64,000 bases of DNA from an uncultured Fibrobacterota bacterium (GCA_964586285.1 CAZPHU010000005.1:3813-67812); one strand, 5' to 3'; positions 2,677-52,659 are shown, counted from the stretch's first letter. Numbers and translations: made by a program. The notes: generated by a model not told the origin, from the sequence alone.

Positions 2677-3182
2677 TATTCTTTCCTGTAAACTATCAGA
2701 TTCATATTCGGAAACCCTGCCTGTCCACAGGTATACATTATACGTGTTAAGACGCTATAAGGGACTTCCACATCTCCCTGTATTGTTATATCGCCGGGAA
2801 ATTCCTTCCCGAATCTCTTGGCGGCGTTTTTCCCCTGTTCGGCAAATTCAGTAAGTACCCGATACAGAGAATCTATTTTGAATGCATCCTGTTTCAGCAG
2901 ATCGTTGTATGTGCGGGAATCAATGACCACACGATCTTCAACAGATATGGCGTCCCGGGAAATCTTAATACTCAGAGCCTCCTGAGCCCCTCGCTGTACG
3001 GTAGATGCCGGCAAAATCAGGCCTGTCGCCGGTGTAACCAACTGTCCCTGTGCAGAAAAACTTTTAAGAAGAAATACCAGAATGATAGTAAACATATCCA
3101 TCATCGATGTAATATTCAGTTTCGCATCAGTAGAGCTGCGCGCCTTACGAGCCTGTCTTTTCAATCGCGGATTTGTATTCAC
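2676..3182 (-). CDS. exbD: ExbD/TolR biopolymer transport protein
   Basis: 168 aa. The N-terminal 'KLNITSMMDMFTIILVFLL' TM retains the conserved Asp (D29, codon 3096-3098). The GTG start overlaps the TGA stop of the upstream gene (GTGA). Confidence 0.85.
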   Translation of the reverse strand: MNTNPRLKRQARKARSSTDAKLNITSMMDMFTIILVFLLKSFSAQGQLVTPATGLILPASTVQRGAQEALSIKISRDAISVEDRVVIDSRTYNDLLKQDAFKIDSLYRVLTEFAEQGKNAAKRFGKEFPGDITIQGDVEVPYSVLTRIMYTCGQAGFPNMNLIVYRKE

Positions 3183-32956: not shown

Positions 32957-33202
32957 AAAATCACTCTCGATGAATGTTGTTAGCAGGACCGAATAAAAAA
33001 ATAAATCATAGAAGGTGTCGCAAAAAGATATATTACAATATGCGCTCATAAACACGCGGCACAACCTTTGCAATGCACGATTCGGTGCCAAGTATCAAAA
33101 AAGATCAATCAAAACTATTGATTCGTATCACAAACACGGTATAATTGAATTATTTTCATCTCAGACAGTAACTTCGTTCTAATTATTTACAGGAGGGTGT
33201 TC

Positions 33203-36725: not shown

Positions 36726-38609
36726 ATGACCGTTGAACCACGCTCAGATTCCGAAGACGCTTTTTCGGATATACCGGCTAAGAGGACTCATCGACAGCCG
36801 GATAATAAAAGGAATATCGAAGCAAAACCAACAAGTACCCGCACAGATCTGGCGGGTTTGGGGATAAATACGTCCACCGGTACCAACATTTATGTAGGAA
36901 AAAAAATCACAGGATCCTTTTTACCCGAAACCCTGCGCAGGCTTAAGGATACCACCCTGGACGGTTTTTCAATCGAGACAAAATCGAAAGACGGCAAGGA
37001 AACCGATGTATGCCCAAAGAAGACTACGCGGTTTTCGCAGACGACGATCGAAACTTCTCCAATTGCGCCTGTGAAGAACAAAGCAAAAACAGACTGTCCG
37101 ATTGTGGTCGAGGAGTCCTCGGAAAGTTCAGTTGAGAAGCAGAAGAATAAGTCTTCTAATGCCGGGCATAAGAAAGATAAGAAATCCTCACATCACATAT
37201 CGGTTGATATTTCATCCGGTTACATGGGAAGCTTGCCCTCCGAGGATGATCGTGTGTCGCTTGGTTCGGGTATTTCGGCAGGAGTTTTGGGAAGCGGAGG
37301 GATGGCCAAGGTTTATAAGATCTGGAATGAACAGCTGGAGATATTCCGCGCCGTGAAGGTACTGCTTCCTTCCAATCATCAGGAAACCTGGAGGCGATTT
37401 GAAACCGAGGCTAAGATATCGGCCAAACTTCATCATCCAAACATCGTAGAGGTATATACGATTGGGCAATGGCACGGGTTGCCCTTCATGGAGATGGAAA
37501 TGGTACAGGGAAAACCTCTGACCGATTTGATTTCCAGGTTCAAGCCTCTTCCCTGCTTTGTATGCTCAGCCGTGGCACTTCAGATTTCTCGCGCCCTTGC
37601 CTATGCGCATCGCCTGGAGGTTCTCATATACGGGAAGAAGTACAAAGGCATTATCCATCGTGATCTTAAGCCGTCAAACATAATGATTGATGAAAGCGGA
37701 GTGGTCAAACTGATGGATTTCGGTGTGGCGCGGCCGGTCGAAACCGGCCTGCATACAATCAACACCACGAATCTTGTAGGCACAATGCAGTATTTTTCGC
37801 CCGAGCAGATTAACGGGTATCCGATCGATCAGCTGTCCGACATATATTCTTTCGGGGCGGTACTGTATGAGATGATATGCGGTGTCAATCCTTTCCCGCA
37901 AAGCAAGATGGTTCAGCTGATACAGGCAAAAACAAAAAATGTGTTCAAACGCCTGGAGGATTACAGCTTGACCTTTGACGGCAGACTATCCTCCGTCTCC
38001 CAGATATGTTTACGAACCGATAAGAACACGCGTTACAATGATTCCGCGCAACTGCAGGAGCATCTGGAGGAAATTCACAGATCATTTAAGATCGGTTCTC
38101 CGGAAGATGTGGTTGTCTCATTTCTCAATGATCCGGAGTCGATGTACAGGGAAGAGAAAGAAAGATATTTACAGTCGGTACACGCGGTAGCGCAACAGCC
38201 TCCAGATCCGCCTGTTCGGAGGGTGCAAGCCGTAAACACGGATGCGGACACCGAGCGCTGCGAATCGTCATCAATTTACGATCAGGAGCAAGGCGCATCA
38301 AAAATCAGGGCTGCAAAAGAGAGTGAATTTACGAATAAACAGTTTGATATCGGGGATCAGACGCAGAAATGCGGCTTCGTAGTAACTTCCGAGAAAAGCC
38401 GGCCGGAGAATGAAGAGGAGTTTGAGGAGCCAAAGCCCAAAAGAAAACTGCCTTTGCTTGTTTTGATCATTCTTGCTTCTTTGCTTGTTGTTGTCGGTAT
38501 TATTTTGTTTCTTCGAAGTACGTCAGGTACGCAAAAGTCCGTGTCACATATTAAAAAAGGCTCGATATCATGTGTATCGTTGAGTGCGCCTTTGAAACGA
38601 GAGGTTTGA
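36726..38609 (+). CDS. Hanks-type Ser/Thr protein kinase, C-terminally membrane-anchored
   Basis: 627 aa. 'GSGGMAKVYKI...AVKVL', 'HRDLKPSNIM', 'DFGVAR', 'YFSPEQ', and a C-terminal TM 'LPLLVLIILASLLVVVGIILFL' followed by only ~30 aa. Confidence 0.9.
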   Translation: MTVEPRSDSEDAFSDIPAKRTHRQPDNKRNIEAKPTSTRTDLAGLGINTSTGTNIYVGKKITGSFLPETLRRLKDTTLDGFSIETKSKDGKETDVCPKKTTRFSQTTIETSPIAPVKNKAKTDCPIVVEESSESSVEKQKNKSSNAGHKKDKKSSHHISVDISSGYMGSLPSEDDRVSLGSGISAGVLGSGGMAKVYKIWNEQLEIFRAVKVLLPSNHQETWRRFETEAKISAKLHHPNIVEVYTIGQWHGLPFMEMEMVQGKPLTDLISRFKPLPCFVCSAVALQISRALAYAHRLEVLIYGKKYKGIIHRDLKPSNIMIDESGVVKLMDFGVARPVETGLHTINTTNLVGTMQYFSPEQINGYPIDQLSDIYSFGAVLYEMICGVNPFPQSKMVQLIQAKTKNVFKRLEDYSLTFDGRLSSVSQICLRTDKNTRYNDSAQLQEHLEEIHRSFKIGSPEDVVVSFLNDPESMYREEKERYLQSVHAVAQQPPDPPVRRVQAVNTDADTERCESSSIYDQEQGASKIRAAKESEFTNKQFDIGDQTQKCGFVVTSEKSRPENEEEFEEPKPKRKLPLLVLIILASLLVVVGIILFLRSTSGTQKSVSHIKKGSISCVSLSAPLKREV

Positions 38610-38613
38610 TAGA

Positions 38614-40350
38614 ATGATTGTTGGGAAAAGACTGAAAAAACTTCCTGTAATTGTAGGTGTTGATGCGGAAAAATGCGTCAATTGCCATGCCTGCATAACA
38701 GCCTGTCCGGTCAAGTATTGTAACGACGGCAGCGGCGACTTTGTAAGTGTAAATCCATACATGTGTATAGGATGCGGTAATTGTATAAAAAAGTGCACCC
38801 ACGGTGCCAGGTATATGGTGGATGATTTTGATCTTTTCATGGAAGATCTTGCGGCCGGGGAGAATATCATTCTTATCGTCGCACCTTCTGTAGTGGCGAA
38901 TTTTCCCAATGATTATTTGCATTTAAACGGGTGGTTTAAAAGCCTTGGGGTAAAAGCGGTATTTGATGTGAGTTTCGGTGCGGAGTTGACTGTAAAGTCT
39001 TACATAGATCTTCTTCAGAAACAAAATTCTCCCGAAACGATTATCTCCCAGCCGTGTCCTGCAATAGTAACATATATTCAGATGTATATCCCTGAGCTTC
39101 TAAATAACCTGGCTCCGGTAGACAGTCCGATGCTTCACACCATGCGAATGATCAAAAAGTACTTTCCCGAGTATGCCGAGTGTAAAATAGCCGCTCTATC
39201 GCCATGTCTGGCCAAAAAGAGAGAATTCTTCGAAACTGGAATGGGAAATTATAATATCGGCTTCAAATCGATACGTACCTGGTTGGAAAAACATGAGGTT
39301 AATCTCTGCGATTATTCACCCGATGATTATATCAATCCACCCGCTGAGAGGGCGGTTGGCTTTTCAAGCCCCGGAGGTCTTCTTAAAACTGCCGAACGCT
39401 GGGTTCCCGGCATAACGGAACAGTCACGAAAAATAGAGGGAACCGAAAACATCTATAGCTATCTTGATAAGTTATCAGAGTCGATTTTAAACCAAACAGC
39501 TCCTGTTCTGATCGACTGTCTTAACTGCGAGCGCGGTTGTAACGGCGGACCTCTGACGGTTACCGACAACGCTCCCCTTGACGACATGGAGAAAGTTGTT
39601 TCCAGACGCTTACAACAGGCTGTGGATTCGTATGAAGAAGGTGAAGTTGAGCAAGAAACTCAGCTGTCAGTTGACAGAATTGATGAGGTACTGAAACAGT
39701 ATTGGGAAAACGGACTCTATCGACGCAACTATTCGGATCTAAGTATTAACAATCGCATAATTGTTCCCTCCGAGGAGGAACTTAAAAAGATCTATAAACT
39801 GATGCGTAAAACTTGCGATGCTGACTTTTACAACTGCAGCTCCTGTGGATACGGTACCTGCGAACAAATGGCAATCGCCATATATAACGGATTGAACCGC
39901 CCCGAAAACTGTCATTTCTACCTTGCCGCCGAAGCTACGATGCAAACCGCGGAGATCTCGGAAAATGAAAAGCGACTCCGAACAATACTATCTTCCACAT
40001 CCGCAGGTTTTTGCCTTGCGGATGAAGATTACAGGCTTATTGTTGTGAACTCCGCCTTCTGCGACTATATGGGAATGGAAAGAGAAAAGCTTCTTGGTAC
40101 TACATTCCTGACCAAACAGTTTAAGCGCTGTTCGGCGGGTAATCCATATTCTTCGGAAATAAAGATCAGCCGTCCGAATGGAACCGCTGCCTACTATCTT
40201 TTCATCGCCAATCCATATATAGACGAAAACAAGGAGACAGTCGGATATTTTGCTTTGGTTGTAGATGTAAACAGATATAAGAACAATAAATCAACTACCG
40301 CAGGCACGAACGTGCCTAAGTCAAAGCCGCATAGCGACCTTCTAGCATAA
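38614..40350 (+). CDS. Sensory-type [FeFe]-hydrogenase-like protein (2x[4Fe-4S] ferredoxin + H-cluster domain + Cx2Cx4Cx16C + PAS)
   Basis: 578 aa. 'CVNCHACITACP' and 'CIGCGNCIKKC'. H-domain motifs are 'SQPCP' (vs TSCCP), 'SPCLAKKRE' (vs MPCxxKxxE) and 'CLNCERGCNGG' (vs CxxGCxxGG). 'CSSCGYGTC-x16-C' spans residues 408-433. C-terminal PAS 'LRTILSSTSAGFCLADEDYRLIVVNSAFCDYMG'. Confidence 0.85.
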   Translation: MIVGKRLKKLPVIVGVDAEKCVNCHACITACPVKYCNDGSGDFVSVNPYMCIGCGNCIKKCTHGARYMVDDFDLFMEDLAAGENIILIVAPSVVANFPNDYLHLNGWFKSLGVKAVFDVSFGAELTVKSYIDLLQKQNSPETIISQPCPAIVTYIQMYIPELLNNLAPVDSPMLHTMRMIKKYFPEYAECKIAALSPCLAKKREFFETGMGNYNIGFKSIRTWLEKHEVNLCDYSPDDYINPPAERAVGFSSPGGLLKTAERWVPGITEQSRKIEGTENIYSYLDKLSESILNQTAPVLIDCLNCERGCNGGPLTVTDNAPLDDMEKVVSRRLQQAVDSYEEGEVEQETQLSVDRIDEVLKQYWENGLYRRNYSDLSINNRIIVPSEEELKKIYKLMRKTCDADFYNCSSCGYGTCEQMAIAIYNGLNRPENCHFYLAAEATMQTAEISENEKRLRTILSSTSAGFCLADEDYRLIVVNSAFCDYMGMEREKLLGTTFLTKQFKRCSAGNPYSSEIKISRPNGTAAYYLFIANPYIDENKETVGYFALVVDVNRYKNNKSTTAGTNVPKSKPHSDLLA

Positions 40351-40385
40351 GAAAGCGGCGGTATAAACCACCGCTTTCTTATCTC
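40349..40385. terminator. Bidirectional terminator between the convergent hydrogenase-like and CotH genes
   Basis: GAAAGCGGCGG (40351-40361), loop tataaa, CCACCGCTTTC (40368-40378) with one mismatch, T-rich on both sides. Confidence 0.6.
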
Positions 40386-40458
40386 TTGCCCGGCAATACA
40401 GAAGTTTGCATCCGTTCGAGTCGGTGCATTTTTGGAACCGAAGGCCTTTTGAGTTTTT

Positions 40459-43230
40459 CTATTGACAAGAAGCTGTGAATTGCGTCAACTTTTCAGGAGA
40501 AATGGTTCTCTTAGGCTCCTTATTCCCGTCACTCCACTTCACGAACGATTTCCCCGTTGCCGGAATGACTTCCAAGGTCAAGGGAGAACCGCTGAAATAG
40601 GTTCCGGTATAAGGGTTTTCGAATATTTCCAGACCATTTATCAGAACAGCTCCATTCTCAACGTTTATGCTTAACTCGTACTCATCACCCAAATCAAAGT
40701 ATCTTTTCATTTGCTCAACAAAATATCCCTTGCGGTCCTGAGCAAATTCGTAGAGTTTATCAACTTCGTAATCCCAGTTCTTGAAACCCCACCGCTCGTA
40801 ATGACGTGATATTTCCGAACTGTAAATAGATTTAAACTCATCTATGCGCTTCTCTATCCTCTTTGTACGAAAGTTTGTATTTAGAAGCGTAGAAGTTATG
40901 GAAATAAAATCCGCCTTGAATTGTTCGTTTTGCAGCAGTGTTCTGAAAAGAAAAGTTGCATTTGCTCCATTTGGATAATCGGGTCCGATATCATTTGTAC
41001 AAAACTCAAACATATCAACATCGATATCCGAGTGTCCTTGAAATCCAAAATCGGTATCGTACAATATCCAGCGCCATTTCGAACCCGGCTGATAGGATCT
41101 CCAGAACTTGATGTTATTGGCGGGCCAGTCGGTATTTCCATAGAACATTTCCGAAGCCATATAAGTAGCATAGTTTAGAAGGTCAGCCTGGGATCTTACA
41201 TGTTGGTAAGGTTCATCTTTACTGATATCGTTTGCGCTCATGTAGTTTGTGAGTTCATCATATCGGGTTCGGTTGCCTGAGGTCACATCACCGATTGCCT
41301 TGATTATATCGAAATTTCCTTCTTCCAAACCGTAATTTGTCCAGAGGTAATCTTCGTTAAGCTTTTCGCGCAGATTGTAAATACCCCAATATGCCCCGTT
41401 TATATAAACTACCACCGGTCGGTACTTCTGGTAATCAAGATCCCGATCCTCAAGTAATGAACACATTAATACGTCACGAAACCCAGTTTTCCCACAGTTA
41501 CTTCCGTTATTTCTAAGAACAAACTTTTTAAACTTATCAAGATGCGGATATTCTGGAAACAGGGTCTGCTTCAATTCCGAGACACCGTATTGCCCTCGAA
41601 AATGAACCGATAAAGACTTCTGTTCGTTTGCTCTGCTCCAGTTACCAAATATCCGCAACCCAGCGTCATGAGCAAACATTTTGCTTTTGCTCTCATCATA
41701 CATTTCCACGGAAACCGCCACCTCCTTTTCGCCCCAGAAATTTGCGCCGAAATAAGGGAATACAGGACTCGCATGTTTTCCGTAAGAATATATGCCAGTG
41801 TCGGGATCAAAAAGCTGAGAAGAATCTGTCACCAGAGATACCACAGCCATATCGGTATTCTCTCTAATAAAAACACTTGCCGTATTCACAGAAGATGAAT
41901 ACTCGCCTCTTTTATAAGCGCGGGCTCGCACGACGGCGGTGGAGTCAAGTTTGAACGGCCTTTCATAAAGTATGCTTGACGTATCCGGAACTGATCCGTC
42001 CAGCGTATAGCGAATGATTGTGTTTGCGGGGGCGGCAATTCTTATATTCACCGGTGACTGAAAAAAACCACCTCCGGGTAAAATCTCCGGGGCAGGTGTT
42101 CTTTTTGCATGGCCTTCCGTCGCATTTTTTTCACCGGGTGTGGGCTGATCCGTTATCGAAACGAGGGATGAATCGGTCAAATTCCTGCGCATTGTAAATC
42201 CGCCGGGCAAATCCCTAAGATCCATTGAGTCCACAACTTTCCCATTCGAATCGGAGAGAAAAACGGTCTCGTTTCCTCCGAGAGAAAAATTAGTGTGGAA
42301 ATGTTTTTCACAAGTGATGAAATAAAAACCTTCAACCGTAAAAGATACCGATCCGACAAAATTATCGGGATTAGCCACCTCTACGGCATAGAACTTTGTA
42401 AGATCAAGCATCCCGTCTTTAATCAAAGGAATAGTGTAGATATCGCCTTCTTTGCCCGTACCGGTCAACTCGTGCTTGTATGACATCCATTCTTCTATGC
42501 CCTGTTGGTTTATGCGGATCAAAACCTTTTTATCCTTTTCGATGTATCCTTTGAATAGCAGACGATCATATCGTGACATATTAACGGTATCTGTTTTTCG
42601 CCATCCATCCCAACCCATATGTATAACAGCTGAGCGCCAACCAAGTTGAGTGTTTTGAGCCATATTCATTGTTGCGGAGAGGACGGTATTTGTATCTCCT
42701 TCCAAAACACCACGATACCCTCTTTCAAGCCTGTAAGGCTCGATACTACTTTTCCCCAAACCACTCTGATCATCCTCATCCGCCCATGCATATGTATACC
42801 TGGTTATACCGCCAACCGTATCACCTCCCTGATCAGCTTCCCGATAATCCTTTCCTGAAGCCATTATAAGGATAAATTGTCCCGGAGCAATAACGGTATC
42901 GGGAATTGCCCATCGGGTAAGCGAGTCTCTATCGTCTGAAAGGTAGTATGAGCCCAAATCTATCGAATCATCCGACCTGTTGTACAACTCAATCCAGTCC
43001 GGATCGTCATAGTCTCTGTCTTTTAGACGCTCGTTTACAGCCGCCACTTCACTGATTATCAGGTCGGGAAACTCGTTTTTCTCTTCGACTCCCTCCACCG
43101 GATTAAAAATGAAAGGCAGCGCAGTTTCTTCTCTGTCGGTGCATGAAAAAACCAAAGCAAAACAAAAGAAAACAAAAAAACAAAGACTCAATCTTCTATT
43201 CATATATCTGAAATAAGAGGGTTGTTTCAT
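40459..43230 (-). CDS. CotH-family (atypical kinase fold) lipoprotein with lamin-tail domain and chitobiase-C/Fn3-like module
   Basis: 923 aa. Lipobox 'FALVFSC'. LTD 'LIISEVAAVN...DWIELYNRSDDSIDLGSYYLSDD'. 'IIRYTLDGSVPDTSS'. CotH core 'FVLRNNGSNCGKTGFRD...VVVYINGAYWGIYNLREK...WRWILYDTDFGF'. Confidence 0.85.
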   Translation of the reverse strand: MKQPSYFRYMNRRLSLCFFVFFCFALVFSCTDREETALPFIFNPVEGVEEKNEFPDLIISEVAAVNERLKDRDYDDPDWIELYNRSDDSIDLGSYYLSDDRDSLTRWAIPDTVIAPGQFILIMASGKDYREADQGGDTVGGITRYTYAWADEDDQSGLGKSSIEPYRLERGYRGVLEGDTNTVLSATMNMAQNTQLGWRSAVIHMGWDGWRKTDTVNMSRYDRLLFKGYIEKDKKVLIRINQQGIEEWMSYKHELTGTGKEGDIYTIPLIKDGMLDLTKFYAVEVANPDNFVGSVSFTVEGFYFITCEKHFHTNFSLGGNETVFLSDSNGKVVDSMDLRDLPGGFTMRRNLTDSSLVSITDQPTPGEKNATEGHAKRTPAPEILPGGGFFQSPVNIRIAAPANTIIRYTLDGSVPDTSSILYERPFKLDSTAVVRARAYKRGEYSSSVNTASVFIRENTDMAVVSLVTDSSQLFDPDTGIYSYGKHASPVFPYFGANFWGEKEVAVSVEMYDESKSKMFAHDAGLRIFGNWSRANEQKSLSVHFRGQYGVSELKQTLFPEYPHLDKFKKFVLRNNGSNCGKTGFRDVLMCSLLEDRDLDYQKYRPVVVYINGAYWGIYNLREKLNEDYLWTNYGLEEGNFDIIKAIGDVTSGNRTRYDELTNYMSANDISKDEPYQHVRSQADLLNYATYMASEMFYGNTDWPANNIKFWRSYQPGSKWRWILYDTDFGFQGHSDIDVDMFEFCTNDIGPDYPNGANATFLFRTLLQNEQFKADFISITSTLLNTNFRTKRIEKRIDEFKSIYSSEISRHYERWGFKNWDYEVDKLYEFAQDRKGYFVEQMKRYFDLGDEYELSINVENGAVLINGLEIFENPYTGTYFSGSPLTLEVIPATGKSFVKWSDGNKEPKRTISPEKLTQFTASCQ

Positions 43231-44717
43231 TGCACTTCTCCCGGATTACCGCCTATTTTTTCGGAACGTTTCCAATTCTTTGGCAAAGGTCCACAACCGC
43301 CCACGCGCACCAGTGAATACCCTTCGCCGTCCGCGGCCGCCGCCCAGGCCCGGCGGTCATCATACGTAATCTGGTCGACATTTGCATACACCGGTTTGTG
43401 TTCTCCACTCTCTGAGACGTAGGAATCTACAGGTTGTGCTATGCTTACAGTCTCCCCTTTATTGGATAATTTTCCAGAGTAAAAGAATACTTGTACCGAA
43501 TTCCCCCTGTATTTCTCTTTAAATAGAGTGGAATCGTTTGCGTTTACTAAAAGTATTGTTTCTTCGGCACCGATAACCATGTCTTGCGGGAAGGTGAAAT
43601 CCACTCCACGCACTTTCCAACTAAACGGCATGTATGGAGTCGTTCCAAGAACAACCGCAGTATCGCCGAGGTTGGTTATCTCAAGAAATTCAAAATTTCC
43701 GGGTGAGGGATGATACATTAGTTCCGATATGATTATGTGTCTTGAACATACTGTTGAGTCATTATGTTTTCCCGGCGTAGGTTGGGAAAGAGGCCCGACA
43801 GTAAGGCGGTCCTCAAGTATTCCGATCGACTTATCCCTGACAGCTCCGGATGTCTGCATTCCACTACAGTATCCGGTCATTTTTCCGTTTAAGGCGGATA
43901 GTAGAAAGATGCATTGTCCCGCATTTCTAAAATCCAACTCCGGCGCATCCTCGGATTTTATGACAAAGAATCCACCCGGTTTCATGACCGCATTTGACTT
44001 TACAGTATAATACTCTGAAAAATCTTTTCGTGTTGTAATAAGCCATCCCGTAATGTCAACTATCTTCGATTCACCGTTAAACAGCTCGATGAATCCGCCC
44101 GAATCATTCCAATTGGGTTTGAATTCATTTATCAATACTTTTGAATAAGGAACGGAAGGATCAGTGAATCCGGGGGAGCCCCCTGTGTCGGCGCTGTTTC
44201 TCCAGTAATCATGATAATCCTGTTTGTAAACGGGTGAATCATCTATGCTCACCAGCGAGTACCCCCTACCATCAGCGAGAACAGGCCAGGGTAGCTCATT
44301 ATCCCAGCTCATCTCCGTTATTACCGAACCGAACGGTGAAATTAACTCAATGCTTTCCCCTTCATTTGCAAGTCGTCCGGTGAAAGGCCCGGCACAAGGA
44401 CTGTTTGGGTATCGTTTCCTGTATTCTTCGGTAGAATTTGTCACCACCATATATGCTCCGGAGGATAAGACCGGAGCCTCTGGACCAAACTGAAAATCAA
44501 TACCACCCGTAATGCGGATCCCCTTAAGCTCTACATCCACATCACACACATTTCGTATTTCAACATACTCAAGGGTATCGGTCTCTGAAAACCTGTACAT
44601 TATTTCTGTGAAGGCAAGCGGCATGTCGTCATAATCCGCAGCCGTTAAACCTGGTGATGCACATTTGATAGTACAAAGATAAAGTATAACGCAAAGAAAC
44701 CGTTTTACATTTTTCAT
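43227..44717 (-). CDS. Secreted protein with three lamin-tail domains (LTD)
   Basis: 496 aa with a signal peptide. LTD starts are 'FTEIMYRF..LEYVEIRN', 'LINEFKPN...GFIELFN' and 'IISELMYHP..FEFLEITN', each followed by 'L.N.GE.i.L'. ATGA overlap with the CotH start. Confidence 0.8.
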   Translation of the reverse strand: MKNVKRFLCVILYLCTIKCASPGLTAADYDDMPLAFTEIMYRFSETDTLEYVEIRNVCDVDVELKGIRITGGIDFQFGPEAPVLSSGAYMVVTNSTEEYRKRYPNSPCAGPFTGRLANEGESIELISPFGSVITEMSWDNELPWPVLADGRGYSLVSIDDSPVYKQDYHDYWRNSADTGGSPGFTDPSVPYSKVLINEFKPNWNDSGGFIELFNGESKIVDITGWLITTRKDFSEYYTVKSNAVMKPGGFFVIKSEDAPELDFRNAGQCIFLLSALNGKMTGYCSGMQTSGAVRDKSIGILEDRLTVGPLSQPTPGKHNDSTVCSRHIIISELMYHPSPGNFEFLEITNLGDTAVVLGTTPYMPFSWKVRGVDFTFPQDMVIGAEETILLVNANDSTLFKEKYRGNSVQVFFYSGKLSNKGETVSIAQPVDSYVSESGEHKPVYANVDQITYDDRRAWAAAADGEGYSLVRVGGCGPLPKNWKRSEKIGGNPGEVQ

Positions 44718-45487
44718 TATATAGTCCTTCGGTAAAATGCCGGTGTATCGGGGCAGTCCGATTCAAACCACTCACACCTAAACACTTCATTCATGGCATT
44801 CGCGTATTTAGAAAAACTTGCTTTTTTCAGACCGAAATAGTGTATGAGATCAAAAAACCATAATGGAAAAGTTTGACGATATGTTTTTAGCTCAAGAATT
44901 ATATTACATCCGAGTGGGAAGATTTCCTCAAAGTCGTATGAGTATAGCCTGCCGTTGTCGGGGATAAGAGAATAATCATTCTGCCGGTGACATACCAGTT
45001 CCTTATCAAAAGTTATGCGGGCATATTTGTCTACTGTCGAAAACCAGGCCAGTCTTTTGTATTGCGTAAATACCTTCGGAGCACAGTTAAAAAAATGATA
45101 TTTCCCCAAGAACTCATCATCGTCCCGACTATCCAAATACTGCTGAGGTTCGCTCGTAAAAGGCACTCTTGTTTTTCTTATCACCATTCCTTCACGATAC
45201 TTTACCTCCGCAAAGTACGGCGGTAGCGGATTCTCCCCATAAGATCTCATTCTCAAGTTGAATCGCTTAGGCTCTTGCTCCACACGCCATTTCAAAAAAA
45301 GATAGTCTTCAGTATCGAAATAAAGTGAATTGATCGTATAAAAACCACCGGGTACTAACTTTGAATACGGGTCCATATCGCAATATGATTTAATAAACTC
45401 CGAGACGGGATAAACGTAGTCTTGCGGTATGAGATATTTCAGCTCATATCGTGACAGTCTTTGTTTTTCAAAGGAATGGCTATTCAT
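44717..45487 (-). CDS. VTC-domain (polyphosphate polymerase / CYTH-like tunnel) protein
   Basis: 256 aa, cytoplasmic. 'LSRYELKYLIP', 'INSLYFDT', 'FNLRMRSY', 'AEVKYREG...RKTR'. These resemble the bacterial proteins annotated as polyphosphate polymerase domain-containing. Confidence 0.75.
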   Translation of the reverse strand: MNSHSFEKQRLSRYELKYLIPQDYVYPVSEFIKSYCDMDPYSKLVPGGFYTINSLYFDTEDYLFLKWRVEQEPKRFNLRMRSYGENPLPPYFAEVKYREGMVIRKTRVPFTSEPQQYLDSRDDDEFLGKYHFFNCAPKVFTQYKRLAWFSTVDKYARITFDKELVCHRQNDYSLIPDNGRLYSYDFEEIFPLGCNIILELKTYRQTFPLWFFDLIHYFGLKKASFSKYANAMNEVFRCEWFESDCPDTPAFYRRTI

Positions 45488-46754
45488 TACCTTTTATCAC
45501 CTGAAAGTTTTTATCTAAATAGTTTTTCAGCTCACCGTTAGTGAGCATGCCGGATATATTAAGCAGCTTTACATACGCGATGTAAATATCAAACCTGAAT
45601 TCTTCTATTTCCATGGCGCTTTCAAGAATACTTTCACGAGTCTTGAGAATGAGTAAAGGATCGGTGCCGGCAACACGAAGATACTCCTTCATTTCCTCAT
45701 TTCTATTGAGATCATCGGTTCTTTTTTCCAGAATTGTTATTTGCTTGAGCATTATTTGCATATCGCTTTTAAGCTCGGTGATTCTTTGGTGAATCTCTTT
45801 TCTCTTTTCAAGGTACTTGCCTTCGTCTTTAAGTAAAGCTGCTTTACGACGATGTATATCATTCTTATCGGGAATCGGAATGGATATACCGGTACCGACA
45901 TGCATGTTTTCATAAGCGGGAGTGCGATCCTTACGTATGCCTTCATAAATTCTATGATCATATCCAAATTCTAAAAACTGAACCAGGTCTCTACCCTCCG
46001 ATCGCTCAAGTTCATAGCGGCTTTGTGATTCCTTCAACTCCCACCAGGCAAGCTGGATATGCACGTTGAGAGTATCAGGATTAATGTGCTCCAGCAAACT
46101 GTCGATGTCTCTTAGACGCACAAAATTTGTAGTATCGAAATTGTTTTCCGCTGTAAACGGACGATATTCGGATATCTCCCTGATTATGTCTTCAAGTTTT
46201 TTTTCGTTACGGATAATTTGCAGACGCATTTTCGTGAGTTCATCCTGAGCCTCAACAAGGTTTGAAAAATCAAAATCCTCCTCATTCATTCTGCTTCTGT
46301 AAACAGTAATTTTGTCCTCGTATACTTCCCTAAGCTCAAGCCTGTGGCGCATCTCTATTCTCTTGTGAATAAGCTCCAGAACCAATTTATAACGATCATA
46401 GAGCTTTTCATTCAACATTTCTTTTTCGGCCCACCGATGATAATGGAGTCTGTTGTGCGACAACCTTTTTCCGGTAAAAGTCTCTCCTAAACCGCGCATC
46501 TCCAAGCGGGCCGCGAATTTATGTCTATTGACATCCAGCCCGTCCAAGTCATATCGAAGCTCCACTCCGTCAAGAAATGGGACTGACCACAAGGAATTCT
46601 CAAGATAAGCTACTGTTTTTCTTCGGCTTTCCAGTCGCATGTCCTCATCGGCTCCCGCCAAAAAAGACTCAACCGCAACAGTTTGTGCATCACTGCCAAA
46701 AACTAATCCCAGAAGTATAAGAACTTTCAACCTTATCATATCTCTTTTCGCCAC
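45480..46754 (-). CDS. Putative outer-membrane factor (TolC-like) protein
   Basis: 424 aa. Signal peptide 'MIRLKVLILLGLVFGSDAQ' and long helical, charged repeats. The assignment rests on composition and context only. Confidence 0.45.
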   Translation of the reverse strand: MAKRDMIRLKVLILLGLVFGSDAQTVAVESFLAGADEDMRLESRRKTVAYLENSLWSVPFLDGVELRYDLDGLDVNRHKFAARLEMRGLGETFTGKRLSHNRLHYHRWAEKEMLNEKLYDRYKLVLELIHKRIEMRHRLELREVYEDKITVYRSRMNEEDFDFSNLVEAQDELTKMRLQIIRNEKKLEDIIREISEYRPFTAENNFDTTNFVRLRDIDSLLEHINPDTLNVHIQLAWWELKESQSRYELERSEGRDLVQFLEFGYDHRIYEGIRKDRTPAYENMHVGTGISIPIPDKNDIHRRKAALLKDEGKYLEKRKEIHQRITELKSDMQIMLKQITILEKRTDDLNRNEEMKEYLRVAGTDPLLILKTRESILESAMEIEEFRFDIYIAYVKLLNISGMLTNGELKNYLDKNFQVIKGNE

Positions 46755-46758
46755 CTTT

Positions 46759-47742
46759 TTACTTACTGCTGATTATTACTTTCTCTCCCAGAAGAAACCT
46801 GTTGCGCTCAGGTATCCTAATAGAAACTTCCCTACCCCAAACCGATATGTCCGGACGGCTTCTCAATCGTAGAGGAAATTCCACGATCCGCGCCCCCACT
46901 CCAACCACTTCTCCGGTCACGAAATTGTGGTTATCGGCAACAGACTTAACCGATACCACATCACCCCTTTGAATACTGCTGTAGATTTTCTCGTGAATGT
47001 AGCCGCGGATAATTTCGGGGGTCTGTGAATGAACCGTCATTATCGGTTCAAATGCCGAAACCTTTTCACCAACGCCATAATTTACCGATCCCACCACTCC
47101 ATTTATCACCGAGGTTAAAACCAGATTTCGGAGCTGCGTCACAATAAGATCTTTCTCTCTACTTAAGTTTTGAATCCTTACCTTTTGAGTCTCCGCCTTT
47201 TCTCCCCTACTCTTTTTCAGAATTTCAATCTGATATCTCATCGATTGCTCTTCCAACTGTAGTTGCTTTTGATAATTTGAGATTTTTTTCATTAAAGGAT
47301 TCTCCGAATCATCCATCACAACCGGTTGCGTTATGCTTTCGAGTCTGGATGTAAGCTCAAGATTTTTGCGCATTTTCCTTTCAAGCTCGTCAATAGAGTA
47401 TTGGATTTCGCTTTTTTTCTTTACGAAATCGGCCCTTACGGCAGCTATCCTCGACTGAAGTTCATCCCCGTCTATATTCTTGAAAGTTGCATAGTTATTC
47501 AGTTGCTGTTCGATGATCGCCAATTTAAGGCGAAGCTCCGGCATATCCAAAAGGGCCAAAGTATCACCGATTGATATTGATTGACCGGGTATGGCGGTTA
47601 CCTGCTTTACTTCGACCGCCTTCTCGAAATTCAGTTTCGTTTCGCGGCTTTCGGCGATTCCGTAAAACTGTGCCCTCTCCGAACTGAACCGACTCGACAT
47701 ACCGATCAACACCAACACGGCAGTAAGCCAGATTAAGATCAT
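46759..47742 (-). CDS. HlyD-like membrane-fusion (periplasmic adaptor) protein
   Basis: 327 aa. N-terminal TM 'MILIWLTAVLVLIG', lipoyl-like 'VTAIPGQSISIGDTLALLD', a ~150-aa coiled coil, and a C-terminal beta region 'GVVGSVNYGVGEKVSAFEPIMTV...GYIHE'. Confidence 0.7.
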   Translation of the reverse strand: MILIWLTAVLVLIGMSSRFSSERAQFYGIAESRETKLNFEKAVEVKQVTAIPGQSISIGDTLALLDMPELRLKLAIIEQQLNNYATFKNIDGDELQSRIAAVRADFVKKKSEIQYSIDELERKMRKNLELTSRLESITQPVVMDDSENPLMKKISNYQKQLQLEEQSMRYQIEILKKSRGEKAETQKVRIQNLSREKDLIVTQLRNLVLTSVINGVVGSVNYGVGEKVSAFEPIMTVHSQTPEIIRGYIHEKIYSSIQRGDVVSVKSVADNHNFVTGEVVGVGARIVEFPLRLRSRPDISVWGREVSIRIPERNRFLLGEKVIISSK

Positions 47743-47752
47743 CCGTTTGATA

Positions 47753-48466
47753 TTACACCTCCGCCGTTAATGTCTGGTTTATAAGATTGATCGATTTTAA
47801 GGTATCGATTTTTTGAAGAGCATGCGCCAGCTCGGCTGAATTATTTGTGTTTTTTAACTTGATCTGATATGCATATTCTATTCTTTTTCCCTGTGAAGCC
47901 TCTCTGACCGTCACCAGAACAAACTGCCTGCAATAAGCACGAAGCACTGTTTCGATACTCTGCTTGACTCTAGGCTCATCTTCCACATTGAAACGAACGA
48001 TACCGTCAAAGGCGTTGGTGCGTATGGATGGAATGAAATGCAAGGCGGCGGAAGCGGTGCAGAAGGCAACCGTACCAATAACTGCTACAGTGTATGCGTT
48101 TACGCCGCATCCAATTCCAGCCGCAAGGGCGGCAAACATGAAAATAATATCCCGAGAATCCTTAAAATTGGTCCTGAACCGAACGATGGCCAAAGCACCG
48201 ATCATTCCAAGGCCGCGAGCCAGACTATCTCCGATGGCCTGCATGATAGTGGATGCCACAATGGAGCTAAGTACCAGGGATTGGACAAAGTTGTGATAAT
48301 ATGAAAGTCCGCGAAATGTTCGCTCATAGGTAAATGCTATCAGCATCGAAAGCACAAAAGCCAGAATGGATGAGAAAAGAACCGTTATTAATCCCGGATT
48401 TATGGAACTTGTCTGTACGGTAAAATAATCTAACACCTCTACCTGCCTTAATTGGAATGTGTACAT
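47753..48466 (-). CDS. DUF4956-family integral membrane protein
   Basis: 237 aa, ~4 TM. 'GMIGALAIVRFRTNFKDSRDIIFMFAALAAGIGCG' matches the family hallmark as I remember it. It has a soluble C-terminal ~90 aa. Confidence 0.75.
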   Translation of the reverse strand: MYTFQLRQVEVLDYFTVQTSSINPGLITVLFSSILAFVLSMLIAFTYERTFRGLSYYHNFVQSLVLSSIVASTIMQAIGDSLARGLGMIGALAIVRFRTNFKDSRDIIFMFAALAAGIGCGVNAYTVAVIGTVAFCTASAALHFIPSIRTNAFDGIVRFNVEDEPRVKQSIETVLRAYCRQFVLVTVREASQGKRIEYAYQIKLKNTNNSAELAHALQKIDTLKSINLINQTLTAEV

Positions 48467-48560
48467 GACTAGGACTTTTTTAATCGCACAACCACACTGC
48501 AGATAATAAGCCCTGCATTACTGTTTCGCCTCTTTAGTATCCTAATATACCGACTCTGTT

Positions 48561-48589
48561 CTAACATTTTCCTAACATCCACCTAACAT
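48561..48589. repeat. Three perfect CTAACAT direct repeats at exact 11-bp phasing (Pho-box-like operator candidate)
   Basis: CTAACAT at 48561, 48572 and 48583, separated by 4-nt spacers TTTC and CCAC. On the minus strand a TATATT (48549-48544) lies 11 nt downstream of the repeats. The operon ATG is at 48466. Confidence 0.6.
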
Positions 48590-48881
48590 TTCGTTATTTC
48601 GCTAAATGGTTGGTTCTTTTTGGAAAAAAATCAAAACAAAACCTCTTTTCTTACAAAAATTATTAATAAATGTTAAAAAAAATCAGGAGATGTAGATGCT
48701 TTTAAAGGAAATGTCGATTTTTCAGACTACTATCATTTATCTGTATTTTCTTCCATGCACAAAGGTTTAAACACAATTTAATGTATCTTTCAATGAGTGC
48801 ACTTGGACCGTTAGTCCAGAAGATAGTCAAAACGTATTTTTGTGGTATTCTCAGAGAAATAAACAACGAAGGGAGTATCTG

Positions 48882-49580
48882 ATGATTTTTCTAGAAAACA
48901 AATGGGCTTTAGTAACCGGCTCCAGTCGAGGTATTGGCCAACAGATTGCGCTGGGTCTTGCAAAGAGAAAATGTAATGTGATCGTTCATGGAAGAAAAGC
49001 GGATAATGCGTGCCAAACGCTTGAGCTTCTAAAAGAGTATGATGTTCTGACCCACTGTGTTTCGGGAGAGCTTTCGTCACCGGATGAGGTAGCGGGTATA
49101 ATCGATCAAGTCAAAAATGGGCCTGGAAAAGTCGATGTCCTGTACAACAACGCCGCAATTCAGAATGCCTGGAAACCGATATGGGAGATAACCCATGAAG
49201 AATGGCTGGAATCCTTTGAGATTAACTTTTTCTCGGTGATCGCCTTGTGCAATGCATTTGCACCTGGAATGAAAGAACGTGGTTATGGACGTATAATCAA
49301 CCTGACTTCAGGGATTAAAGATGTGCCCAATCTTTCACCTTACAGCACATCCAAAGCAGCTATAGATAAATACACCCAGGACCTTGCTTTCGAACTTAAG
49401 GGCACGAATGTCTTGGTTAACAGGGTGGATCCGGGATGGCTGAGAACGGATCTGGGCGGTCCAAACGGGATGTTTTCGGTTGAAACCGTTATCCCCGGAG
49501 CACTTGTACCGGCACTTTTCGAGGACAACGGCCCAAGCGGTAATTTTTACGCCGCACAAGATTTTAAATATCTGGATTAG
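48882..49580 (+). CDS. SDR-family oxidoreductase
   Basis: 'ALVTGSSRGIGQQ', 'NNAA', 'YSTSKAAIDK'. ATG 48882 follows a GAAGGGAG SD. Confidence 0.85.
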   Translation: MIFLENKWALVTGSSRGIGQQIALGLAKRKCNVIVHGRKADNACQTLELLKEYDVLTHCVSGELSSPDEVAGIIDQVKNGPGKVDVLYNNAAIQNAWKPIWEITHEEWLESFEINFFSVIALCNAFAPGMKERGYGRIINLTSGIKDVPNLSPYSTSKAAIDKYTQDLAFELKGTNVLVNRVDPGWLRTDLGGPNGMFSVETVIPGALVPALFEDNGPSGNFYAAQDFKYLD

Positions 49581-49816: not shown

Positions 49817-52444
49817 TTATCTTTCGGCAATGATCGAAACAGGCTGGGTAAAATGACCTGCCCCGTCGAAATACCTGATCACGTACATGCCGGAGCCCAG
49901 AGTGTTTTGAAGGTTTAGTGTATGTCTGCCAGTACTCAATTGTTTTAGTTGAGCAGACAAATCCTTAACCAATTTTCCGGAAACAGAGTACATCTTAAGA
50001 GAAGAGGCGGAAGGTCTCTTCAATAAAAGATCCAGCATTAATTTCGAACCCTTTGTCCGAGCGAAAAACGCAGCCTGGCCCGATTTACGAATAAAGGGAC
50101 TGGCAAGCTCCACCTTATCCTGCATTTTAAGTTTTACATTATCGATGTACACGTTCCTGTCAGATAAACCTGCATAGAATCCAATACGAGCCTGGTCATC
50201 GGTAGGATAAACCATTGTGAAGGTAAAAGAGTAGTTTTGGGGTTGATCAGAGAGAGTTATCTCTGTTTCGGCGTCACCCGTATATGATTCATACGGATCG
50301 CTTGACATGCCCACATCCGCCACGATTATCCGACTGGTGTCAGCCCAGGCATCGAAACTGAATTCATAAACACCCCCTTGTATCAGTTCAATCCCAAGCT
50401 GTGTCATTTGTACACCCCAGCCGACCTCACCACCATCTCTAATATCAAGCACAAACACGCCGCTGTCGGATACATATTCCCTGCCTAGTCCGCCCTCATG
50501 ATATGTTACCGACCATTCATTATCCCCATCAGAAAAGTCTCCGTTGCGTACGATTTCATCCACAAGACCGAATCCGGCACGAATCGAAAGATCTTTATCT
50601 ACCGTCAACGTAATCGTGGTATCTTCGCCATGTTCGGCGCCGCTCCAGCCCCTGAAAATCTCACCACTATCCGAAACGGCAGTCAATTGCACTGAACTAC
50701 CTTTTTCAAAGAGTTTCTGATTCGGTTCAACCAAAACGCTTCCCGGCCCCTCAACGGATATATTGATTGCAAACATAGTCTGCTCGACACGAGGCCCTTC
50801 GCCCATAACGGCGTCAACTGCCGCCAGCAGAGCCGTCATAGGTGAACTCCAGTTAATTGCAACTTCGTTAGTTGTATAACTTCCATAAACGTCTTCATAA
50901 TCACCTGCTCCCCCGTTTGGACCGCCGACCAGAAACCCTGGTATCATTTCTTCGATCCCGTCGGCTCCCGAGGGACGATGATGAGGATTCCTTGCCGCCT
51001 TCAAACCAAATCCCGTCAAAAAGGAGTGTGTAGTAGCGTTTTTCCCAAGCAGGTAATCGATACATTCCGCGGCACCTTTGATATACTTTTTATCTTCTGT
51101 AAGAGTATATGCGACAACCAGACAAAGACCGTCATTGGCCAGGAACGAATTCGATCCCCAGTTAAAAATGAGTCTTGGTATTCTATATGCATAGGTTTCA
51201 ATTTCATCCAACAACTCATCCGCCGCAACTATGAAAGAGCTTTTAATTGCATGAAAAGACGCGCTGTCCAACTCGTTGTCGGCAATTGCAAGAGAAAGTG
51301 GCGACATACTTTTAACGAACTGCCAACGAGGCGCATACCTGTACTCGTATAGATTTTCAACCACAATATTGCGGTACTCTTCTTTACCTGTAGTAATAAA
51401 CAGCTCCGTTGCGGCCCACAGTCTCTCATCCGCGACTTGTTCATCTTCATACGCTCCAGTACCAACGCCGGAGGGATTTTCATCAAATAACTCCGAGGGA
51501 TTTTCTTCAGCCCATACCCAGGCACTTTCGGCCTGTGCCAGACACCCTGCAGCAAATGTACTGTCCAAAGCTACATATATGCGTCCTGCCATTGCCATCA
51601 CTGCTGCAAAATCCAGTGTCGCGGCGGTTGATTTTCCTATAAAATACCGAGTTGCATTCGCCTCGTGAGGCATTTCGGTACCGGTAAAGTTTAGAGTTGT
51701 AAGCTTGTGGAAAACACCACCGTCACTATCCTGCATGGTTTTCATCCATTCAAGTTCATACCGCACCTCATCCAGAAGGTCATCCTGGGAATTACCGGAT
51801 TCGGGTATGTTTAGAACGCTGTCGCCAAAGTAAGTACCAAACATCTCATAAAATTGCAATAGAGTTCCCACCGTTATGCCCGCGTTGACTATATATTTAC
51901 CGTAATCACCAGCATCATACCAGCCGCCGGGTGATGAAGCCTTACCGCCGTCCTTTCCGGTAGAGGAATGATATACGACCGCAGTGTCCGGATGTCCGGC
52001 CGGCCTGGCGAATTTGCCTGCATACTGCGGTTCCAACTCCATGCTTGCTCGCTGATAGTAGAAGGATTTTAGTGATGCCGCGGCTGCATCTGCATAGATT
52101 CGATTAGATATTCTAAAAGGATAGGAAGTACCCAAACCTTCTGTTCTGATCCAGTAAGTTCCAGGCTCGGTTAATGCGGAGAAATCCGCCTGCTTAACCG
52201 CTTCCTGCCATTCTCTTCTCCACGCAGTCTTTTCCTCAGACAAAATGTCCCTAAAAACCACACTGTCCCGTGCATCAATCACCTCAAAAACCGAGTCGAC
52301 AGCCCCAATTATAATGGCGATCTTATTTGCCGAAGGATAGTAACCTACCTGATTGATTCTGTAGTTATCTTCATCTCCCCACGCTTTGAAAAACATACAA
52401 CTTACTACAATTATTAGCCACATTTCCGTTCTTTTTCTCTTCAT
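49817..52444 (-). CDS. GH9 endoglucanase: Ig-like N-domain + GH9 + InlB-B-repeat-like + CBM4/9-like + T9SS-type C-terminal sorting domain
   Basis: 'YRINQVGYYP' (CelD_N-like), 'GWYDAGDYGKY', 'NPHHRPSG', 'LVGGPNGG', 'YTTNEVAINW', 'FRGWSG', and the C-terminal 'LKMYSVSGKLVKDL...LGSGMYVIRYFDGAGHF'. ATG 52444 (MKRKRTEMWLIIVV...) preferred. Confidence 0.9.
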   Translation of the reverse strand: MKRKRTEMWLIIVVSCMFFKAWGDEDNYRINQVGYYPSANKIAIIIGAVDSVFEVIDARDSVVFRDILSEEKTAWRREWQEAVKQADFSALTEPGTYWIRTEGLGTSYPFRISNRIYADAAAASLKSFYYQRASMELEPQYAGKFARPAGHPDTAVVYHSSTGKDGGKASSPGGWYDAGDYGKYIVNAGITVGTLLQFYEMFGTYFGDSVLNIPESGNSQDDLLDEVRYELEWMKTMQDSDGGVFHKLTTLNFTGTEMPHEANATRYFIGKSTAATLDFAAVMAMAGRIYVALDSTFAAGCLAQAESAWVWAEENPSELFDENPSGVGTGAYEDEQVADERLWAATELFITTGKEEYRNIVVENLYEYRYAPRWQFVKSMSPLSLAIADNELDSASFHAIKSSFIVAADELLDEIETYAYRIPRLIFNWGSNSFLANDGLCLVVAYTLTEDKKYIKGAAECIDYLLGKNATTHSFLTGFGLKAARNPHHRPSGADGIEEMIPGFLVGGPNGGAGDYEDVYGSYTTNEVAINWSSPMTALLAAVDAVMGEGPRVEQTMFAINISVEGPGSVLVEPNQKLFEKGSSVQLTAVSDSGEIFRGWSGAEHGEDTTITLTVDKDLSIRAGFGLVDEIVRNGDFSDGDNEWSVTYHEGGLGREYVSDSGVFVLDIRDGGEVGWGVQMTQLGIELIQGGVYEFSFDAWADTSRIIVADVGMSSDPYESYTGDAETEITLSDQPQNYSFTFTMVYPTDDQARIGFYAGLSDRNVYIDNVKLKMQDKVELASPFIRKSGQAAFFARTKGSKLMLDLLLKRPSASSLKMYSVSGKLVKDLSAQLKQLSTGRHTLNLQNTLGSGMYVIRYFDGAGHFTQPVSIIAER

Positions 52445-52659
52445 CTTAAGAAAAAACCCCTTTCGTACCAAAAACACACTTAATTCATAATACAATATAA
52501 GCTCAGATACCTTTCCGGCAGTTGGCGCAGGCGCCATCAAATTTTCTAATTGTTTTAATTGTTCAAAACGTGATATATAGGCGCCGAGAGAAGGGGACAA
52601 TGAGAAAGCCTGATTTTTGATTCACTTGGGAAGCCAAACTATTCAGTCCATTAACACAA

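Follow-up and report, generated by a model that had tools for sequence, protein, structure and literature searches.

We analyzed a 64,000-nt stretch of DNA (referred to as the window) from an uncultured Fibrobacterota bacterium (GCA_964586285.1 CAZPHU010000005.1:3813-67812), and we focused on a locus of six minus-strand genes at 40459-48466, with all positions counted along the whole stretch. Four of the genes encode a DUF4956 inner-membrane protein, a periplasmic adaptor (membrane-fusion protein), a TolC-family outer-membrane factor (OMF), and a VTC-domain protein, and our results showed that these four genes form a recurrent, conserved cassette in diderm bacteria. The remaining two genes encode secreted proteins with lamin-tail (LTD) and CotH kinase domains. 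HMM (hidden Markov model) searches and family profiles placed all six proteins in the families named in the initial annotation of the locus, which had also proposed that polyphosphate (polyP) is made and exported here. We gave about an even chance to the idea that the locus is a synthesis-coupled, envelope-spanning exporter of inorganic polyP or a close phospho-polymer.

The recurrence of the cassette was established in a census of VTC relatives that used one genome per species. The census yielded 411 VTC relatives, and the 80 best were annotated with HMMs built from the cassette families. The core order DUF4956-adaptor-OMF-VTC was found in 42 of the 80 loci and the order adaptor-OMF-VTC-DUF4956 was found in 27, yielding 69 complete cassettes. 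Two further loci were complete, with an order that was misassigned through overlapping ORFs (open reading frames), and most of the remainder were cut by contig ends. The OMF gene adjoined the VTC gene in 79 of the 80 loci, and the two genes usually overlapped by a few nucleotides. When the neighboring ORFs of the 80 loci were clustered, only the four core families were near-universal (71 to 79 loci); CotH/LTD proteins were next (33 loci), followed by generic histidine kinases. Transporters of the ABC, RND, and MFS families did not recur around the 80 loci, and Pfam and NCBIfam scans found none encoded in the operon or its flanks in the window. The suggestion that the adaptor and OMF operate without a pump of these types agreed with gene content both here and elsewhere.

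The census loci of named lineage belonged to Desulfobacterota, Bdellovibrionota, Fibrobacterota/Chitinispirillaceae, Spirochaetales, Calditrichota, Myxococcia, and UBP6, with one locus each from Bacteroidia and Campylobacterales. All of these lineages belong to diderm phyla. The loci closest to the window in gene order were those of Chitinispirillaceae/Fibrobacteres, and the GH9 cellulase encoded near the operon (see below) suggested that the host is fibrolytic and of the Fibrobacterota or Bacteroidota type. In Desulforapulum, Halobacteriovorax, Bdellovibrio, and one metagenome-assembled genome (MAG), the neighbors of the VTC gene scored 118 to 236 bits as adaptor, 8 to 146 bits as OMF, and 221 to 251 bits as DUF4956. 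The cassette was present in four culturable species, namely, Bdellovibrio bacteriovorus, Desulforapulum autotrophicum, Desulfoluna limicola, and Desulfonema magnum.

A reciprocal scan of metagenomes started from the adaptor. Among 40 loci whose contigs extended 2.3 kb or more downstream, an OMF gene was found in 38, a VTC gene in 39, and both in 37. All four core genes were present in 27 of the 30 loci that had room on both sides. With the four genes syntenic in 69 of the 80 genomes and in 27 of the 30 loci from metagenomes, the arrangement was far beyond chance. The adaptor and OMF were dedicated families that were almost exclusive to the cassette. The insertion of an adaptor/OMF pair, which had been regarded as the novel element of this locus, had no description for diderms in the full-text literature covered; it was not peculiar to the locus and proved to be a standard part of a widespread cassette.

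The window itself encodes TonB, an ExbB-ExbD fusion, and an AsmA/YhdP protein, which indicated that the host is a diderm. For comparison, monoderm VTC loci were sought via tblastn of plasmid and chromid records, which provided a small sample of four: Enterococcus faecalis, Paenibacillus cellulosilyticus, Planococcus maritimus, and Nonomuraea gerenzanensis. DUF4956 directly followed VTC in all four loci, and CotH was located within 3 kb in three of them (Enterococcus, Planococcus, and Nonomuraea). No adaptor or OMF was found in any of the four monoderm VTC-DUF4956 loci, in contrast to the diderm census clade, which kept both; this was the distribution that the initial annotation had proposed to look for. 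Since an envelope-spanning adaptor/OMF pair occurred only where an outer membrane exists, it seemed best explained by export of the product of the polymerase, and the topological logic of the diderm and monoderm loci favored export.

The neighborhood of VTC, DUF4956, and CotH, which the initial annotation had mentioned for other bacteria, was seen in the monoderm loci and in published pel loci. In Gram-positive pel loci, CotH, a "polyphosphate polymerase," and DUF4956 were described as accessory genes (Whitfield et al. 2020), and the three were also noted in C. perfringens NELoc-2. In S. intermedius (SIR_1592-1594), the source of the only functional data found, deletion of the DUF4956 or CotH gene caused a loss of more than 50% of aggregation and altered Pel levels, and the authors stated that the triad was not found outside Pel loci (PMC12345266). 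Our diderm census contradicted this restriction. In the full-text literature, with most subscription journals outside its scope, we found neither an account of the four-gene cassette of diderms nor a function for a bacterial VTC protein. The three-gene monoderm association was already known, and the diderm four-gene cassette appeared to be new.

The VTC-domain protein (44717..45487, minus strand, 256 aa) is a cytoplasmic triphosphate-tunnel enzyme with homology to the catalytic domain of Vtc4 and is the predicted polyP polymerase. Its earlier assignment to the VTC/CYTH group held up in a Pfam match to PF09359 (123 bits with a cut-off of 23, profile positions 2-234 of 235) and in a full-length alignment with yeast Vtc4, which the 14-member family profile A4 matched at E=3.3e-12 (3g3q, positions 8-250 versus 6-284). 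A search of the PDB with the single sequence gave nothing useful, and the family profile was required. The profile scored catalytic Vtc4 at 49.5 bits versus 41.8 and 26.8 bits for non-catalytic Vtc2 and Vtc3. We then followed 11 tunnel/catalytic residues, which we take to be those listed in the Vtc4 structure work (Hothorn et al. 2009), with correspondence counted along the printed profile alignment. Vtc4 residues R196, K200, R264, R266, K281, Y359, R361, R373, E426, S457, and K458 corresponded to R13, K17, R79, R81, K96, Y143, R145, R157, E199, S226, and K227 in the window protein, and all 11 positions were invariant across the 14 clade members. The protein carries the VTC domain alone, with neither an SPX domain nor a VTC-type transmembrane domain, and we detected no transmembrane segment by hydropathy and no signal peptide. 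Its nearest relatives were only 36 to 47% identical and came from diderm lineages.

In three metagenomic loci, a PHO4/PiT phosphate transporter gene (316 to 365 bits) was located between the OMF and VTC genes (L133:3727-5319, L140:9168-10757, and L142:9175-10740), and L136 had a gap of the same size at this position; the PiT insertion marked one metagenomic sub-clade. A PiT gene inside the cassette is an independent link to phosphate flux, and the polymerase reading was strengthened by this gene together with the retention of all 11 Vtc4 residues. It is also conceivable that altered VTC/TTM chemistry yields another phospho-product, such as a short oligophosphate, a nucleotide-derived polymer, or carrier-linked polyP, that follows the same export route. 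The TTM/CYTH superfamily spans several triphosphate chemistries, and bacterial VTC proteins were only 26 to 47% identical among themselves and far from Vtc4 (49.5 bits). In addition, the phytase-like/DUF3616 propeller found on many adaptors (see below) suggested periplasmic processing of a phospho-ligand. We considered such a product quite unlikely, however, given that the 11 Vtc4 residues, K200 included, were invariant and that the profile preferred catalytic Vtc4 over Vtc2 and Vtc3.

The OMF (45480..46754, minus strand, 424 aa) has a Sec signal peptide followed by two repeats, each composed of a β-hairpin and a long helix pair; its start could be either the GTG at 46754 or the ATG at 46739. 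It matched the Pfam OEP family (PF02321) at 30.7 bits (cut-off of 22) over residues 263-402, which cover the C-terminal repeat only, and the orthologue in L005 matched OEP through the N-terminal repeat. No PDB match was found by sequence, with either the single sequence or the family profile. In an AlphaFold2 (AF2) model, β-strands 61-69 and 77-86 preceded helices 89-154 and 163-197, and β-strands 258-268 and 283-291 preceded helices 297-361 and 366-401. When this model was compared to the PDB with Foldseek, the top 44 matches were all TolC, OprM, SilC, VceC, CusC, CmeC, OprN, or MtrE (E down to 7e-14, TM-scores of 0.42 to 0.65, and 399 to 454 aligned columns), and the next match had E=0.17. 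Thus, the modeled fold was that of a TolC-family outer-membrane channel, as had been suggested from the sequence. Word-indexed homologue searches returned two and then four proteins, and the idea that the OMF was an orphan was dropped when an exhaustive search returned 961 clusters at E<=1e-3, nearly all 400 to 440 aa in length with full-length matches. The only distant OMF relative from the word-indexed searches (P0002, L003:24-2297) followed an adaptor at a contig start and preceded an opposite-strand PALP gene rather than VTC; the upstream side of this locus lay beyond the contig.

The adaptor (46759..47742, minus strand, 327 aa) is of the EmrA/HlyD type. Alone, it scored 19.6 bits against Pfam HlyD_3, under the cut-off of 22.2, and it had partial NCBIfam matches to RND_mfp, HlyD, and EmrA (5.5e-10 to 2.5e-8); the single sequence found nothing useful in the PDB. 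Its orthologues exceeded the Pfam cut-offs (HlyD_D23, 43 to 45 bits; HlyD_3, 25 to 39 bits) and scored 118 to 236 bits in five other loci. The six-member family profile A2 matched EmrA (8zar, 1.8e-9, positions 12-284, almost the whole length), MacA (1.5e-6), and MexJ (7e-5) in the PDB, in agreement with the original HlyD-like call. The protein has one N-terminal hydrophobic transmembrane anchor (residues 1-19) and no cysteine lipobox.

A C-terminal β-propeller extension of about 326 aa was present in 55 of 74 adaptors of the cassette family (e.g., L004:7758-8732 and L006:7862-8809), and the propeller was a separate ORF at L095:1169-2098 and L162:338-1321. Matches among 26 scanned propellers were to DUF3616 (15), Phytase-like (13), and SdiA-regulated (7), and the propeller alignment contained seven invariant acidic residues. 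The window adaptor is the short form that lacks the propeller, and a search of the window found no other ORF that encodes one. The length of the adaptor core correlated with that of the OMF (Spearman 0.49, n=104, with much of the correlation driven by Bdellovibrionota and kinship ignored), and we counted this co-variation for the export reading.

The DUF4956 protein (47753..48466, minus strand) was 237 aa as first called. Its start is probably the GTG at 48436, which yields 227 aa, because the family N-terminus is MLD... and a gene call on the same contig is 227 aa. The match to Pfam PF16316 (49.4 bits with a cut-off of 30.6) supported the earlier placement in DUF4956. Hydropathy indicated transmembrane segments at 26-44, 60-78, and 107-146, and the protein was modeled with about four or five transmembrane helices and a C-terminal cytoplasmic βαββα (ACT-like) domain. 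DUF4956 was the best conserved of the four core proteins (50 to 57% identity), and G80, A81, R86, F87, R88, G107, and G111 were invariant, monoderm homologues included. All 27 orthologues examined matched DUF4956, and 19 of the 27 also matched MgtC (best 2e-5). DUF4956 was the candidate inner-membrane partner or translocon. In one MAG, DUF4956 was split into two ORFs of 104 and 112 aa (L005:7165-7844, which is the same as L014); this split may reflect a frameshift, a pseudogene, or faulty assembly.

In the mechanism that we propose, the soluble VTC enzyme would polymerize polyP from ATP at the cytoplasmic face and dock on DUF4956, with its MgtC-like transmembrane bundle and ACT-like domain, and the growing chain would cross the inner membrane there. 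The EmrA-type adaptor and the TolC-like channel would take the chain through the periplasm and outer membrane, and polymerization itself would drive this movement, at least in part. In this genome, the Sec-dependent triple-LTD and LTD plus CotH proteins would be clients transcribed together with the core, acting on the polymer, or jointly with it, at the surface. As regards the synthesis-coupled export put forward in the initial annotation, the family, fold, pump-absence, and diderm results were favorable, and synthesis, passage through DUF4956, and export are steps that we infer, as are the way the four proteins assemble, the energy source, and the role of the CotH and LTD proteins.

The MgtC similarity of 19 of 27 DUF4956 members also fits a regulatory or homeostatic module, in which VTC would make or hydrolyze cytoplasmic polyP or triphosphate, DUF4956 would be an MgtC-like regulator of phosphate/ATP homeostasis, and the adaptor/OMF pair would export another small molecule via DUF4956 or an unlinked pump. 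The association with PiT is equally compatible with phosphate homeostasis, the OMF is acidic like ordinary efflux OMFs, and the authors of the S. intermedius study suggested a role in phosphate metabolism, with polyP possibly staying cytoplasmic (PMC12345266). Such a module would have to accommodate an adaptor and OMF that are dedicated to the cassette (37/40, 27/30, and 79/80 loci in the scans above), OMF and VTC genes that typically overlap, and the lack of a conserved pump nearby. The presence of the adaptor/OMF pair in diderms and its absence from monoderms would also be hard to explain if the VTC product stays inside. Taken together, these points made the homeostatic module seem unlikely.

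Several points weighed against the export reading. Co-transcription of the six genes was judged from spacing only, and the census covered the best 80 of the 411 loci, with the 331 others outside it. Two loci (L106 and L164) had a DUF4956-adaptor-VTC order and no OMF, and one (L138) had DUF4956-adaptor-OMF followed by 4.5 kb that contained no VTC. DUF4956 is a distant relative of MgtC, a protein known for regulation rather than as a channel. The single-sequence AF2 model of DUF4956, which showed five helices and then βαββα, was unusable at a predicted local distance difference test (pLDDT) score of 48.8, and the OMF model, built from four sequences, was of moderate confidence (pLDDT of 64.7 and predicted template modeling score of 0.58). 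The OMF has a net charge of -10, and the secreted proteins are acidic as well, with isoelectric points (pI) of 4.9 for the CotH protein and 4.7 for the LTD protein and a range of about 4.3 to 4.9 for both, so none of the three bears the electrostatic mark of a polyanion handler. The literature covered offered no biochemical or genetic evidence that a bacterial VTC protein makes or exports polyP. In S. intermedius, the VTC deletion mutant had no clear phenotype, and polyP was unmeasured in that study (PMC12345266).

The notion that the channel and secreted proteins are basic handlers of a polyanion was rejected, since the OMF, CotH, and LTD proteins all proved acidic. The acidity of the CotH and LTD proteins made simple electrostatic binding of polyP unlikely. 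The charge of the OMF, CotH, and LTD proteins would lend support to polyanion handling only if the polymer moves as a Mg/Ca complex.

The triple-LTD protein (43227..44717, minus strand, 496 aa) matched Pfam LTD (PF00932) at 106 bits in three stretches and has an N-terminal hydrophobic signal. The last gene encodes a 923-aa secreted protein (40459..43230, minus strand) with LTD, CHB_HEX_C/Fn3-associated, and CotH kinase domains, for which Pfam gave 154.9 bits to CotH (PF08757), 47 bits to LTD, and 49.8 bits to CHB_HEX_C. A signal and a lipobox (LVFS-C) read from the sequence suggested that it is probably a lipoprotein. The CotH single sequence gave nothing useful against the PDB, and the family profile matched B. 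cereus CotH (5jd9, 1.2e-39). Residues D180 (QNxD motif) and D204 (WD motif) were invariant in the family alignment; we take them to be the catalytic and metal-binding Asp residues (Nguyen et al. 2016).

LTD proteins like that of the window followed VTC in four Fibrobacterota/Chitinispirillaceae loci (L033, L074, L079, and L085). Across the census, CotH/LTD proteins were located within 10 kb of the core in 34 of 80 loci, CotH was found in 22, and neither was found in 46. Thus, CotH and LTD proteins were optional partners outside the conserved core. For the proposed polymer route serving these proteins, the family assignments stood, but the proteins were optional and acidic. A second type of exported phosphotransferase was found in about five loci, in which a PPDK_N-domain lipoprotein was encoded directly upstream of the adaptor (e.g., L010:4846-6789, 647 aa, lipobox VVLS-C); in this sub-clade, a small single-LTD protein (159 to 169 aa) directly followed DUF4956 (L010:11474-11953). 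The recurrence of exported phosphotransferases by the core (CotH in 22 of 80 loci and the PPDK_N lipoprotein in about five) was counted for the export reading.

Because the CotH and LTD genes share a unit with the core here and such genes lie close to it in 34 of 80 loci, and because their products need a route across the outer membrane, we weighed the idea that these proteins are what the adaptor/OMF pair secretes, in a type I-like or periplasm-to-outside manner, with VTC and DUF4956 only energizing or regulating the process. We considered this highly improbable, and secretion of the type I kind was rejected as the core function: the proteins carry N-terminal Sec/lipoprotein signals, not C-terminal type I secretion signals, no ABC transporter is present, and 46 of 80 loci have no CotH or LTD within 10 kb. 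Moreover, monoderms keep VTC-DUF4956-CotH without an adaptor or OMF.

If the exported polymer is polyP, it might serve as an extracellular phosphoryl donor with which CotH and PPDK_N enzymes phosphorylate the surface or matrix in the absence of surface ATP. We regarded this form of dedicated inorganic-polymer secretion as a doubtful, speculative extension. If true, polyP-driven surface phosphorylation would explain extracellular polyP that arises free of lysis, as well as the joint travel of CotH, VTC, and DUF4956 in monoderms.

The proposed exporter shares features with several known systems. In the eukaryotic VTC complex (Vtc4/Vtc3/Vtc1), the catalytic tunnel domain is homologous, with 11 of 11 checked residues common to both, and the proposed logic of cytoplasmic polymerization followed by threading through a membrane partner is the same. 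The eukaryotic complex has SPX and VTC transmembrane domains, whereas the bacterial enzyme lacks both and stands alone as a soluble protein of 256 aa. The eukaryotic complex delivers its product to the vacuole lumen, whereas the membrane partner in the cassette is the unrelated MgtC-like DUF4956 and the proposed destination is outside the cell. EmrA, the best solved match of the adaptor, likewise has a single N-terminal transmembrane anchor, a long hairpin, no lipid anchor, and a TolC-family partner; however, EmrAB-TolC includes the MFS protein EmrB, and the operon contains no MFS transporter, nor is one conserved in the vicinity of the cassette elsewhere.

The closest mechanistic precedent appeared to be synthase-adaptor-TolC polymer export rather than a drug pump. 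A synthase with a HlyD-like adaptor and TolC was proposed for the S. meliloti BgsA/BgsB/TolC mixed-linkage β-glucan system and for cyanobacterial cellulose (PMC13438883). In its components, BgsAB-TolC resembles the cassette: an inner-membrane polymer synthase is combined with a membrane-fusion protein and a channel of the TolC family, and ABC, RND, and MFS pumps are absent. Synthesis and export are coupled in BgsAB-TolC, as they would be in the cassette. In contrast, BgsAB-TolC handles a polysaccharide and uses an integral-membrane glycosyltransferase and an unlinked housekeeping TolC, whereas the cassette would combine a predicted inorganic polymer with a synthase divided between a soluble enzyme and a small protein of the membrane, and it encodes a dedicated OMF that is highly divergent. 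Gram-positive pel loci have the same three families (CotH, VTC, and DUF4956) adjacent as in cassette relatives, but they are monoderm loci without an adaptor or OMF that lie beside Pel genes, whereas the diderm cassette is not Pel-linked and its CotH is optional. For Bacteroidota, we note that DUF2490 is presumably an outer-membrane β-barrel family. In B. thetaiotaomicron, a DUF4956 gene and an adjacent DUF2490 gene (BT3498-BT3499) formed one iron-responsive entry (PMC10434189). If DUF2490 is such a family, Bacteroidota may pair VTC/DUF4956 with this different outer-membrane partner.

The potential significance of the cassette lies in its breadth, since at least 411 species-level genomes had a VTC relative, of which the best 80 loci were annotated for the cassette, and the OMF family contained 961 clusters. 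In bacteria, polyP is generally ascribed to PPK1 and PPK2 and viewed as a store inside the cell, and polymerases of the VTC type mostly come up in a eukaryotic context. There are reports of polyP outside bacterial cells and on their surface; to our knowledge, no export route is known for this polyP, and the cassette is a concrete, widespread candidate for one. If the export reading is true, a polymerase plus an MgtC-like protein would be a fourth kind of inner-membrane engine for adaptor/TolC tripartite systems and DUF4956 would acquire a function. It would also suggest a possible substrate or phosphoryl donor for secreted CotH kinases, including those of the streptococcal and clostridial loci associated with Pel.

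The six genes of the window are tightly packed, and an ORF listing reproduced their coordinates. There is a 10-nt gap between the DUF4956 and adaptor genes and a 4-nt gap between the adaptor and OMF genes; the three later junctions (OMF/VTC, VTC/LTD, and LTD/CotH) are overlaps of 8, 1, and 4 nt. These values agreed with the minus-strand packing, overlaps of 1 to 8 nt or gaps of at most 10 nt, reported earlier. A terminator scan found no terminator-like site inside any of the five junctions, as had been claimed for hairpins; across the region, such sites were at chance level (10 found versus 8.6 expected). A bidirectional terminator-like hairpin (40354..40375, both strands, GCGGTGG-TTTATA-CCGCCGC followed by TTTCTTA) is located 84 nt past the last stop codon, between the CotH gene and a convergent sensor gene, and is likely to be the 3' end of the transcription unit. 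At the other end, an AT-rich intergenic spacer of 373 nt (48467..48839, minus strand) separates the DUF4956 gene from a divergent SDR gene and is the presumed promoter region. A σ70 scan found no promoter-like site in this spacer, and the 12 sites that it found within 40000-49000 were all intragenic (17.9 expected by chance). An Rfam scan of the window found no riboswitch or other RNA family.

The flanks of the operon are unrelated to it and mostly on the opposite strand; besides the divergent SDR gene, they include a convergent pair at 36726-40350 (plus strand) that encodes a 627-aa Ser/Thr kinase and, after 4 nt, a 578-aa protein with 4Fe-4S, Fe-hydrogenase large-subunit-like, and PAS domains, an architecture like that of HydS sensors. 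Elsewhere in the window, several ORFs of 307 to 645 aa had no Pfam match at E<=1e-5, namely, 7592-9529 (plus strand), 54619-56370 (minus), 59794-61686 (minus), 61731-62819 (minus), 32054-33091 (minus), and 33197-34120 (plus). A single 431-aa ORF at 3179-4474 (minus strand) fuses MotA/ExbB and ExbD domains, and a TonB_C protein is encoded nearby at 1624-2676. Further out from the operon and on the same strand, a gene at 49817-52600 (minus strand) encodes a 927-aa GH9 cellulase with CelD_N and CBM4_9 domains and a weak match to a type IX secretion system C-terminal sorting domain.

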